DNA of 64,000 nt from contig CAWHTW010000005.1 in the NCBI GenBank assembly GCA_963832345.1, positions 148,512 through 212,511 on the forward strand, given 5' to 3'. The notes under the pieces are model-generated. The model worked only from the letters and a program-made list of their open reading frames with translations. It did not search any database and was not told where the DNA came from. Of the stretch, positions 6,041-7,579 are shown piece by piece (positions within the stretch are counted from its first letter, which is position 1; every line of letters begins with the position of its first letter). The DNA comes from an uncultured Flavobacteriaceae bacterium (GTDB lineage Bacteria; Bacteroidota; Bacteroidia; Flavobacteriales; Flavobacteriaceae). The position numbers were made by a program, and so were the translations under genes.

Positions 6041-6117
6041 GGTGGCATAGCTCAGCTGGATAGAGCACCTGCCTTCTAAGCAGGCGGTCCTAGGTTCGAA
6101 TCCTAGTGCCATCACCA
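6041..6117 (+). tRNA. tRNA-Arg (anticodon TCT), with CCA encoded
   Basis: Cloverleaf read by hand. Acceptor stem GGTGGCA/TGCCATC, D-loop AGCTCAGCTGGATAGAGC, anticodon stem CCTGC/GCAGG with loop CTTCTAA, T-arm GGTTCGAATCC, discriminator A and CCA. Confidence 0.9.
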
Positions 6118-6127
6118 AGTAAACACA

Positions 6128-6156
6128 GGGCCTCCAAGCGATTGGAGGCCTTTTTG
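6128..6156 (+). terminator. Rho-independent terminator just after the tRNA
   Basis: Perfect hairpin GGCCTCCAA-gcga-TTGGAGGCC followed by TTTTT. Confidence 0.65.
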
Positions 6157-6394
6157 ATTTCCATCCGTACAACATACGTACAACATTTGAGGTTTTTAAT
6201 TTTAATACAGGAAACGGTTTTACCCTTTCAGATAATGGTAGTAAGAAGAGGGAAGGCTACACTTTGGCCCGGCGCAGGTTGGTTAACTTTCATCCGGCGC
6301 GCTATGCTCACTTTAGTCCGGCGGGGGTGGTATACTATGGCCGTTGTTTGCAGGGATACGTCGGTAATTGATAATTTTGGTAGAAATCCCAGAC

Positions 6395-7579
6395 TTAAGC
6401 CTTTTTTAAAATAAGATTTTTAAATTTTTTGTAGTAGTAAGTTCTATTGAAGTAACCATTTTCAATAATGAACAGGAATCCGAGATAACTAAAATTTAAA
6501 TTTACCTTAAAGAGAAGAAATACTAAAACCCCCAAAATTGTTACTGCCAAAAAATAACTGACTCCGATTATTATTACATTCAAAATTGGGAATTTTAGCA
6601 ATACCGTCGTTAATTGATCTTTTGGGGTTTTTATGACAAATGAAACTGCTAAAAAAGTTACCCACAAAAACAAAATAAGTAAAAATGAAATTTGATTATA
6701 TCCCTGTTTTAAGGATAGGTATGTGTTAAGTAGAATCAGTGGACCCTGTACATCGCCATAGATACCTTGATGGGTATCCGAATAAAAATCCCCGATGACA
6801 ATCAACCTATCTTTATAGTACCCCGGTAGGTTTTCTTTAGATACTGAAAGTAATTCACCTATATCCATGACAGGGTACTCCTTGGTTTCAAACAAATGAT
6901 AGTTTCTTATGCCCAAATAAGGTATAAAATCATTTGGCATAATTTTATTATCTAAAATATTCCACAACCAGAAACTTTTTGATTTACCACTGTGAATTTC
7001 CCCATACATTTTTAGCGGCAAAGATTTAGTATCTGTTTCTGTATTAAAGAGTCTATATTTATAAAATATACCACCAGCTTTATCAATAGATCCTAATCCA
7101 AAATTCAAATCTTTAAAAATCTTTGGAATTAAATCAAATGAATCCCTTTGGGGTAGTATATATCTTGGTTTTTCAATGAGAATTTCTTTTAGTTCTGCGT
7201 CATCCGGGGATGCATGGTCAAAAAAAATGTCACATAAAATGTACTTATAGCCGATACTGTCCTCAATTCTCTCAAAAAGGGTCTTTAATTTATTTCGGTC
7301 AGTAATTGGGACATTTCCATAGGGAAATCCACTTTCATCAAGATTATCAACAAGTATATTTTCAAAACTTGTATTGATTAATAATAAATCATTAAAACTA
7401 GGGACCTCGTTTCTTCCTATAACCTTCTCCTTAATAAAGTGGCTGAAAAGAAGAACATTGGCGTCAATGGCTGGAAAAAGATAAATGGTCTGTGAGATAA
7501 ACAAAAAAATTAAACTTAATGTAGCATTGATTGTACAAAACCGTATCATCTTTCTATTTCGTTCAAGAAATCTTTTCAT
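6395..7579 (-). CDS. CHASE2-like extracytoplasmic sensor domain membrane protein. No output domain
   Basis: One N-terminal TM segment, a ~300-aa extracytoplasmic domain, then three C-terminal TM helices. This is the CHASE2 topology. It overlaps the upstream gene by 4 bp. The region is very AT-rich. Confidence 0.55.
   Translation of the reverse strand: MKRFLERNRKMIRFCTINATLSLIFLFISQTIYLFPAIDANVLLFSHFIKEKVIGRNEVPSFNDLLLINTSFENILVDNLDESGFPYGNVPITDRNKLKTLFERIEDSIGYKYILCDIFFDHASPDDAELKEILIEKPRYILPQRDSFDLIPKIFKDLNFGLGSIDKAGGIFYKYRLFNTETDTKSLPLKMYGEIHSGKSKSFWLWNILDNKIMPNDFIPYLGIRNYHLFETKEYPVMDIGELLSVSKENLPGYYKDRLIVIGDFYSDTHQGIYGDVQGPLILLNTYLSLKQGYNQISFLLILFLWVTFLAVSFVIKTPKDQLTTVLLKFPILNVIIIGVSYFLAVTILGVLVFLLFKVNLNFSYLGFLFIIENGYFNRTYYYKKFKNLILKKA

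Follow-up and report, generated by a model that had tools for sequence, protein, structure and literature searches.

The 64-kb window analysed here, the whole stretch of DNA shown in part above, holds a single tRNA gene, tRNA-Arg(tct), which was found by ARAGORN and confirmed by Rfam; at gathering thresholds Rfam returned nothing else over the whole window. The analysis agrees with an earlier note on this DNA that the gene is followed by a terminator and by conjugation genes. The block had been read as a tRNA-targeted genomic island or integrative and conjugative element (ICE) of about 34 kb that reaches to 40.3 kb. Comparison with relatives leads us to a different description. With a probability of about 0.7, positions 6118-39108 are the rearranged remains of a CTnDOT-like ICE, that is, one with a Bacteroidota-type type IV secretion system (T4SS), from a family of marine Flavobacteriaceae elements. 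Table 1 collects the features of the locus.

The tRNA gene and the arm at its 3' end

Behind tRNA-Arg, the arm consists of AGTAAACA, a terminator hairpin at 6127-6152, a T run and the 22-nt motif TCCGTACAACATACGTACAACA at 6163-6186. The motif is made of two CGTACAACAT repeats of 10 nt each, which from their position we presume to be putative arm-type integrase sites. A scan of metagenomes found the motif in 12 loci and in two contexts, while none of the viral contigs carried it. On the integrase side, the order is integrase, motif, about 110 nt and a partial tRNA; the motif lies at the integrase start in L090, where it is identical, and in eight other loci. On the tRNA side, a tRNA is followed by AGTAAACA, a GGCCTCCGAG hairpin, a T run, the motif, AATTCCAC, the gene of a 223-aa protein and an HTH_17 gene. 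The window matches the tRNA-side context over 6118-6186, starting directly behind the tRNA and including the whole motif, and diverges from these relatives right past it. From this alignment it follows that the terminator after tRNA-Arg is ICE DNA and that 6118-6188 is an attL scar. The same arm sequence occurs 3' of tRNA-Val in L098 and of tRNA-Asp-like 3' ends in L097 and L102. An intact tRNA thus stands at one end of the block, with element DNA from its 3' end onward (6118).

The last 48 nt of tRNA-Arg (6068-6115) correspond to the att core of the family. In L102, 48 nt that are 100% identical to these positions lie about 110 nt past a family integrase and a variant of the arm motif, and hence a member of the ICE family uses exactly this part of tRNA-Arg as its core. 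An independent Logan contig (L089), 100% identical to 6096-7697, supports the junction between tRNA, arm and CHASE2-like gene. A 40-nt match to the integrase start of L090 had been read as the trace of an integrase deleted in place; this reading was dropped, as the match runs in the opposite direction to the one expected and the metagenome loci show the motif on either arm.

Layout of the intact family

Intact family members insert into tRNA genes, namely those for Val, Asp, Pro and Arg, within the 3' half. Their tRNA-proximal end comprises the reconstituted tRNA, an ICE-borne terminator, the two 10-nt repeats, the 223-aa gene, a Xis-like HTH_17 gene and a long traQ. At the far end stand the 1634-aa gene, an IntDOT-like tyrosine integrase of about 404-416 aa, the same repeats and a partial tRNA copy of about 48 nt (attR). 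No single relative is shown with both ends, and the contig of L090/L092 (GCA_038316335.1) stops 28 bp past traQ. The closest relative of the window is L087, a JGI 3300033553 metagenome contig, with 88.7% nucleotide identity over 11.4 kb (window 27675-39108); after traQ it continues with genes for 150-aa, 74-aa, HTH_17 (Xis-like, 95 aa) and 223-aa proteins. Compared with these, the L097 versions of the 223-aa protein and of HTH_17 have 89% and 85% identity, and in L088 the traQ/HTH_17 end adjoins the 3' end of a tRNA-Pro.

L090 was reached via the only informative homologue of the 422-aa open reading frame (ORF) in the window. Its genes run from YhcG over an HTH protein, the type IV coupling protein, an 82-aa ORF, a Toprim protein, 275-aa and 407-aa ORFs, an M23 peptidase and a 430-aa ORF to a 1634-aa SNF2/Eco57I helicase-methylase, three cargo genes and a 416-aa tyrosine integrase (Arm-DNA-bind_5, Phage_int_SAM_5 and Phage_integrase domains). 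Outermost is a partial tRNA-Asp 3' half with terminator, and then host DNA. L096 has the layout of L090 minus the cargo genes and lies beside a partial tRNA-Val. All named homologues of the family are from Flavobacteriaceae, e.g., Maribacter, Arenibacter, Pricia and Ulvibacterium.

As a side observation, the integrases of L090 and L096 are 94% identical and yet stand beside different partial tRNAs, Asp-GTC and Val-TAC, and the L102 integrase, 72% identical, uses Arg-TCT. The Asp, Val and Arg cores share an anticodon-stem and variable-region sequence, TGCC...GCAGG(G/C)GGTC, with the same 22-nt motif on both arms. From these comparisons, it seems that the family moves to other target tRNAs while its integrase changes little. 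L102 itself contains nested or tandem family elements (1-2056). One flank of its integrase is an arm of motif type A with a tRNA-Asp-like 3' end; the other carries a variant of motif A, a tRNA-Arg core and a second type of arm with TTTGCACTCA twice, and this arm type is also found beside tRNA-Pro in L088.

The ICE body and its orientation

The ICE body in the window (11892-39108) lacks the integrase, about 4.7 kb of the 1634-aa gene, two thirds of traQ and the HTH_17 and 223-aa genes. It opens with the hairpin region, found by blastn in L090 (19062-19133) at 79% identity and in L101, L103 and L104 at 89-91%. Of the helicase-methylase gene the last 60 or so codons remain (matched codons about 1574-1609), and about 4.7 kb of the gene are deleted. 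The left half of the backbone encodes a 422-aa ORF, an M23 peptidase, 407-aa and 275-aa ORFs, a Toprim protein, an 82-aa ORF, the coupling protein and, beyond it, an HTH protein and a YhcG nuclease. The gene order is that of L090, with 62-93% amino-acid identity except for YhcG (31%), and collinearity with L090 and L096 extends over 12.3-21.3 kb. The defence cargo consists of a C5 cytosine methyltransferase, a 279-aa ORF and a PD-Lambda-5_A/GmrSD-N-like protein.

The element thus encodes a type IV coupling protein and a MOB relaxase with its accessory protein; the relaxase frame, described as split in the earlier note, is indeed broken by a 1-nt insertion near 27844 into fragments of 211 and 571 aa, and intact relaxases of relatives have 763 aa (L092, P0232). 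The intergenic region between mobC and the tra operon is likely to contain the predicted origin of transfer (oriT) and promoters. It has two copies of a repeat of about 120-170 nt (29167-29282 and 29423-29585; repeat families D7, D16 and D19). A third copy was noticed in L087 at 14558-14730, near the tRNA-proximal end and overlapping the 74-aa ORF; going by these positions, the repeat may be a shared regulatory element.

In the T4SS operon, traE, traF, traG (853 aa), a 205-aa ORF, traJ, traK, traM, traN and traO are all intact, and a VirB4-like TraG of Bacteroidota type occurs together with TraJ, TraK, TraM and TraN. Pfam matches include P-loop_TraG (5e-92), TrbL, Transposon_TraM, DUF4138, TraO and TraQ_transposon, and the TIGR03781 TraK match (E=7e-36) is below the curated cut-off. 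ORF lengths in the tra region are the same as in L087, at 88.7% nucleotide identity. The traQ-like gene matches L087 at 88% identity by tblastn over residues 1-381 and stops at 39108; the full protein has 1222 aa in L087 and 1012-1326 aa among homologues. Collinear backbone, sequence identity, 22-nt motif and terminator arm together place the element in the family of L087, L090 and L096.

In these relatives, traQ, HTH_17 and the 223-aa gene form the end that adjoins the full tRNA, and the integrase stands at the opposite end. The window shows the reverse: what is left of the integrase side (11892-12292) comes closest to tRNA-Arg, and traQ faces away from it. The ICE body is hence inverted relative to the scar.

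Table 1. Features of the tRNA-Arg locus, the ICE body and the adjoining Roseivirga DNA
Feature	Position	Strand	Basis or remark
tRNA-Arg(TCT), full length	6041-6117	+	ARAGORN; Rfam tRNA 71 bits
ICE tRNA-proximal arm remnant (attL scar), 71 bp	6118-6188	+	same sequence in L098, L097, L102
Spacer, 206 bp, about 47% GC	6189-6394	.	three ACTTTNNNCCGGCG repeats; no homology to any relative
CHASE2-like membrane protein	6395-7579	-	Pfam
253-aa ORF	7576-8337	-	CHAT module
TPR+CHAT protease, 1055 aa	8349-11516	+	Pfam
Conserved intergenic hairpin region, about 70 bp, just downstream of the integrase in relatives	11892-11962	-	blastn
3' tail and downstream region of the 1634-aa SNF2/Eco57I helicase-methylase gene	11940-12292	-	tblastn/blastn against L090, L096
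ICE backbone, left half	12338-22337	.	Pfam; collinear with L090, L096
Type IV (T4) coupling protein	18321-20885		Pfam T4SS-DNA_transf/TraG-D_C
AT-rich defence cargo	22618-25915	-	Pfam; PADLOC
MOB relaxase (split) and MobC	26132-28808	-	Pfam; alignment to L087
Intergenic region, mobC to tra operon	28809-29986	.	repeat search
Bacteroidota-type T4SS operon	29987-37955	+	Pfam, NCBIfam
traQ-like gene, first 381 codons only	37966-39108	+	tblastn against L087
Junction of ICE and Roseivirga DNA	39109-39117	.	three-way comparison; blastn
Host HEAT_2 gene, last 48 or so codons (265 aa in relatives)	39118-39260	+	tblastn
DUF4097, host gene, frameshifted	39286-40256	.	host side of junction
LolA-like gene, frameshifted	40398-41020	.	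not in relatives at that spot
CN_hydrolase, host gene, frameshifted	41059-41998	.	host-gene block 39286-42010

Searches for integrase, Xis and att sites

The absence of a tyrosine or serine recombinase, first noted from the sequence alone, was borne out by integrase and recombinase profiles. Pfam found no such protein and no DDE transposase among ORFs of at least 100 aa over the whole 64 kb, antisense frames included; a hidden Markov model (HMM) built from seven integrases of the family gave a best match of only 2.9 bits in the six frames of the window, and the L090 integrase found no match in it by tblastn. L090, L096, L099, L101, L102 and L104 each encode an IntDOT-like integrase. The HTH_17 proteins of L087, L088 and L097, counterparts of the small excision or directionality factor that the relatives have, gave nothing below E=0.06 in tblastn against the window, and the 223-aa, 150-aa and 74-aa proteins of relatives left no remnants in it.

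Likewise, no attR was found. Direct-repeat searches of the 64 kb with the tRNA 3' end (25-mer and 27-mer) and with both halves of the 48-nt core, allowing up to three mismatches, returned the single copy at the tRNA gene, as the earlier inspection had suggested. Direct and inverted repeats over 5.3-45 kb comprised REP-like repeats (resembling repetitive extragenic palindromes) of the host and those of the oriT region, none of them att-like.

The CHAT module between arm and body

The arm and the ICE body are separated by the 206-bp spacer, the 5.7-kb CHAT module and a 375-bp stretch without matches. The module has three genes (6395-11516) at about 30-33% GC and is set between the tRNA-side scar and the integrase-side remnant, approximately where the integrase and attR would be expected. 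Composition had been said to drop right after the tRNA terminator; the AT-rich DNA is real, with the drop beginning at about 6400, and the 300 bp before it (6100-6399) still have 45% GC. The module had no PADLOC match, and the protein collection contained neither exact matches to its genes nor relatives at 90% identity. It is not present at the integrase end of L090 and L096, the two related ICEs that cover this end, and a search for short repeats bordering the module or the junctions found none.

The left flank

The DNA upstream of the tRNA had been taken as ordinary lactate-metabolism DNA; in our comparisons it does not look like that of the host. Its lactate-utilisation genes (225-5268) encode an FAD/FeS oxidase, a lactate permease and an FAD-oxidase/ALO-like protein. 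This cluster has 46-50% GC in an otherwise 41% GC Roseivirga contig. The left flank has 48-49% GC, and its genes have a GC content at third codon positions (GC3) of 0.47-0.55 vs 0.35-0.44 for host genes. Its tetranucleotide frequencies correlate with those of the host flank at r=0.54, of the ICE backbone at 0.78-0.80 and of a Pricia chromosome segment at 0.89. The best relatives of its 458-aa gene are from Pricia (78-81%), with no Roseivirga among the 80 best matches in GTDB representative genomes. The synteny of the left flank is conserved nowhere in the Pricia and other Bacteroidota loci matched via the 458-aa protein, and no tRNA-Arg is found there; a genome scan with the same protein yielded no relatives with this left flank beside tRNA-Arg. 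By these measures, all DNA left of 39109 looks Flavobacteriaceae-like, except for the two AT-rich inserts. The left flank is Pricia-like and not host-like in composition, and tRNA-Arg thus does not separate host from accessory DNA.

The right junction

In three Roseivirga relatives (L081, L082 and L084), the gene order is flotillin, CN_hydrolase, DUF4097, HEAT_2, 290-aa protein, extracytoplasmic function (ECF) sigma factor and Lactamase_B_2, and the locus has neither ICE nor tRNA-Arg. The window is homologous to them from 48907 down to 39118, where homology ends inside HEAT_2; its flotillin gene (43223-44665) is 98-99% identical to Roseivirga proteins. The upstream partners of HEAT_2, the ECF sigma factor and the 290-aa protein, are missing next to the window fragment. 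ICE homology stops at 39108 and Roseivirga homology starts at 39118; the right edge therefore is 39109-39117 and not 40.3 kb, and the decayed genes once assigned to the right end of the element, DUF4097 and CN_hydrolase, are host genes. A three-way comparison found no shared repeat and no att site at this junction. It fuses codon 381 of traQ to the truncated Roseivirga HEAT_2, so that ORF 37921-39222 is a chimera of both.

About 14 single-base indels lie in 39.1-43 kb and break DUF4097, the LolA-like gene, CN_hydrolase and a gene resembling REP-associated tyrosine transposases (RAYT-like). In the rest of the window (60 kb), only the relaxase (27844) and an FG-GAP gene (about 50757) are split, and the ICE side of the junction is free of indels up to 39108. 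Relative to L082, DUF4097 has about nine small indels and CN_hydrolase four one-base insertions, mostly outside long homopolymers. The CN_hydrolase fragments nevertheless share 95-98% protein identity with L082, and two functional orthologues are 94% identical to each other. A gene under such clear purifying selection with four frameshifts points to consensus error and not to an old pseudogene, and we have downgraded the latter reading for the host genes. From these alignments, the frameshift cluster as a whole suggests a local consensus error. For the same reason, the split relaxase and the edge pseudogenes count for little as signs of decay.

Discussion

The ICE cannot excise, as it has neither integrase nor attR. 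It is therefore best regarded as what remains of a degenerate ICE that has lost the ability to excise; such an immobile relic is ordinary and does not amount to a new kind of island. The suggestion that the element is an immobilised remnant thus survives through these two losses and not through the split relaxase or the edge pseudogenes, on which it had leaned. Likewise, the idea of a tRNA-targeted ICE is correct insofar as the family uses tRNA-Arg as an att site, seen from the arm and from L102, and wrong in its simple form of a 34-kb island from the tRNA to 40.3 kb.

Once, an ICE of the family would have sat in tRNA-Arg. Later, at least two to three illegitimate events, either deletions and an inversion or the collapse of two elements, would have removed the recombination module and both att sites, and with these gone the element can no longer excise or integrate. 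The inverted layout calls for an inversion plus deletions or for two head-to-head copies that collapsed; no single integration or deletion suffices. The T4SS, the coupling protein and the defence cargo are predicted to be functions that may still be expressed.

Several points weigh against this reading of the locus. The order of events is not reconstructable from the window, and the inverted orientation takes several ad hoc steps. Fully intact tra genes are odd for an old relic. The left flank resembles Pricia and not Roseivirga in composition, so the organism whose DNA fills the right side of the window may not be the one to which the tRNA-Arg locus is native. No record other than that of the MAG contains the fusion ORF at the junction or the frameshifted fragments, and the right junction could be an assembly artefact, given the frameshift cluster that adjoins it. 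Whatever the right junction turns out to be, the element has lost its integrase, carries the 4.7-kb deletion and has an inverted scar.

How the arm and the body came to oppose each other can also be told with two elements. The arm at tRNA-Arg would be the scar of an earlier or neighbouring family ICE and the body a second copy in opposite orientation; deletions would have collapsed both, and the CHAT module would be what remains of cargo or of the DNA between them. Such a history is a variant of the main reading and involves no other kind of object, and we regard it as possible but tentative. Head-to-head copies explain the opposition with no need of an inversion, tandem or nested arrangements do exist in the family (the L102 integrase is flanked by arms of two motif types), and short end remnants occur as well, L097 being an arm, the 223-aa gene and HTH_17 followed by a host-like gene. 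However, the window holds no second body, and no integrase, 223-aa or HTH_17 remnant of one, and at least two illegitimate deletions would still be required. The arm/body opposition also speaks against the simplest model, a single ICE at tRNA-Arg from 6.4 to 40.3 kb that lost its integrase in place. It would account for a tRNA with an ICE arm, for the conjugation genes and for the missing integrase; yet with a body inverted relative to the arm, a right boundary at 39.1 kb inside traQ and a host gene, and a CHAT module that L090 and L096 do not have at their integrase end, we find it scarcely credible. Nor do we give much weight to a larger, complete element that would extend leftwards beyond the window, where its integrase and the second att site would be found, and would carry the lactate genes and tRNA-Arg as cargo. 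The left flank (1-5300) is indeed similar to the ICE backbone (r=0.78-0.80) and unlike the host, and the comparison covers DNA from window position 1 onward. But the integrase adjoins the 1634-aa gene in L090 and L096, and the window has the flanking DNA at 11.9-12.3 kb with no integrase; moreover, the right end lacks an att site and cuts two ORFs, and a full-length tRNA with an arm pointing into the block fits a chromosomal attL and not cargo. We consider this very unlikely.

The right junction raises the question of whether the contig is a chimera, in which Flavobacteriaceae (Pricia-like) DNA at 1-39108 was wrongly joined to Roseivirga DNA at 39118-64000. In that case the assembly would have created both the cut in traQ and its fusion to HEAT_2, and the ICE could in reality run on to a normal tRNA-proximal end. 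The left flank and the ICE backbone correlate with Pricia at r=0.89-0.92 vs 0.54-0.71 with the host flank, the left-flank gene has its best relatives in Pricia and none in Roseivirga, and the named homologues of the ICE family are exclusively from Flavobacteriaceae. In addition, the 14 or so indels clustered on the host side, next to a CN_hydrolase of 95-98% identity, point to a poor consensus or low coverage, and the fusion ORF is known from this MAG alone. Against a chimera, the join has no shared sequence that a k-mer assembler could bridge, ICEs do pass between Bacteroidota orders, and the ICE side is clean up to the junction. On balance, we judge a misjoin unlikely, though a real concern. 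If the junction is real, a single block of at least 39 kb of Flavobacteriaceae DNA might have entered a Roseivirga (Cytophagales) chromosome, joined illegitimately inside a host gene and comprising the lactate-utilisation cluster, a complete tRNA-Arg with ICE scar and the integrase-less ICE. We hold this to be improbable; if true, it would be an inter-order transfer of donor chromosomal DNA riding along with a non-excising conjugative element. The junction thus is of interest in either case: a real one means transfer from Flavobacteriales to Cytophagales, and a false one flags a chimeric MAG contig.

Among known systems, the degenerate remnant resembles CTnDOT-type ICEs, which have a T4SS of mating-pair formation type B (MPF-B) and an IntDOT-family integrase. 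The likeness lies in the set and order of traE, F, G, J, K, M, N, O and Q, the coupling protein, a MobA/VirD2-type relaxase with MobC, a Toprim primase-like protein and defence/methylase cargo and, in its ICE relatives, in an integrase with Arm-DNA-bind_5, Phage_int_SAM_5 and Phage_integrase domains and a small Xis-like HTH_17 protein. CTnDOT integrates at loosely conserved non-tRNA sites. In contrast, the core of the marine family is a tRNA 3' half of about 48 nt, to which the element brings its own tRNA terminator, and traQ is enlarged to 1012-1326 aa with immunoglobulin (Ig)-like repeats. Unlike CTnDOT-type ICEs, the window copy has no integrase, Xis-like gene or attR. Compared with L087, L088, L090/L092 and L096, the 22-nt arm motif and the tRNA-proximal arm are identical in the window, but these relatives keep the full traQ, the 223-aa gene, HTH_17, the 1634-aa gene, the integrase and attR, all of which the window copy has lost, and it has gained the CHAT module.

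In Elizabethkingia anophelis, also of the Flavobacteriales, type II and III ICEs lie at tRNA 3' ends and use several tRNAs, and of 13 type II elements at tRNA-Leu-CAA, 12 have no integrase (bioRxiv 10.1101/402107). An integrase-less ICE beside a tRNA has hence been documented before. Bacteroidota-type tra modules directly after tRNA genes are common to both; host family, tRNA targets and gene content differ, in a comparison made by description only. An inverted body or a fusion to a host gene is a feature of the window that is not described for the Elizabethkingia ICEs (bioRxiv 10.1101/402107).

For annotation, it follows that a tRNA followed by tra genes is insufficient to call an ICE or to fix its limits; here, only the comparison with intact relatives revealed the true boundaries and showed that the integrase and the ends are gone. 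The att layout described here, a tRNA 3' half of about 48 nt, an element-borne terminator and CGTACAACAT twice on both arms, belongs to a widespread, apparently unnamed ICE family of marine Flavobacteriaceae and may be used to delimit other copies.

Spacer and neighbouring features

In the spacer, the ACTTTNNNCCGGCG repeats start at 6261, 6286 and 6310 (span 6261-6323) and are thus spaced by 24-25 nt. The triple repeat has no second occurrence in the window or in any fetched locus; its sole viral match (L105) was discarded as a chance match in a GC-rich coding region. A permissive Rfam scan of 5200-6500 gave nothing credible besides the tRNA; it added only two weak sub-threshold matches, one of which lies in the spacer (serC-leader, 6215-6274, 19.9 bits vs a gathering score of 35 bits, E=0.11).

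On the Roseivirga side, L081 (Roseivirga echinicomitans) carries within 18869-19631 a tRNA-Val(TAC), about 5 kb beyond HEAT_2 and beside two GIY-YIG genes. tRNA-Val(TAC) is one target of the ICE family, and the L082 contig ends near the equivalent place. The LolA-like lipoprotein-chaperone gene sits between DUF4097 and CN_hydrolase, a position at which the three Roseivirga relatives do not have it; in the close relatives P0249 and P0250 the protein has 207 aa. The frameshifted RAYT-like gene occupies 42380-42912, with a match to NCBIfam NF047646 (E=1e-15) that stays below the curated cut-off. It is flanked, within 42116-43189, by a REP-like repeat about 88 nt long (CTCGGCACAGCCGAGCGATTG...GCTCGCTTGCAGCGAGTGAC) that is present in four to six copies, and the Roseivirga relatives carry a different small gene at this spot.

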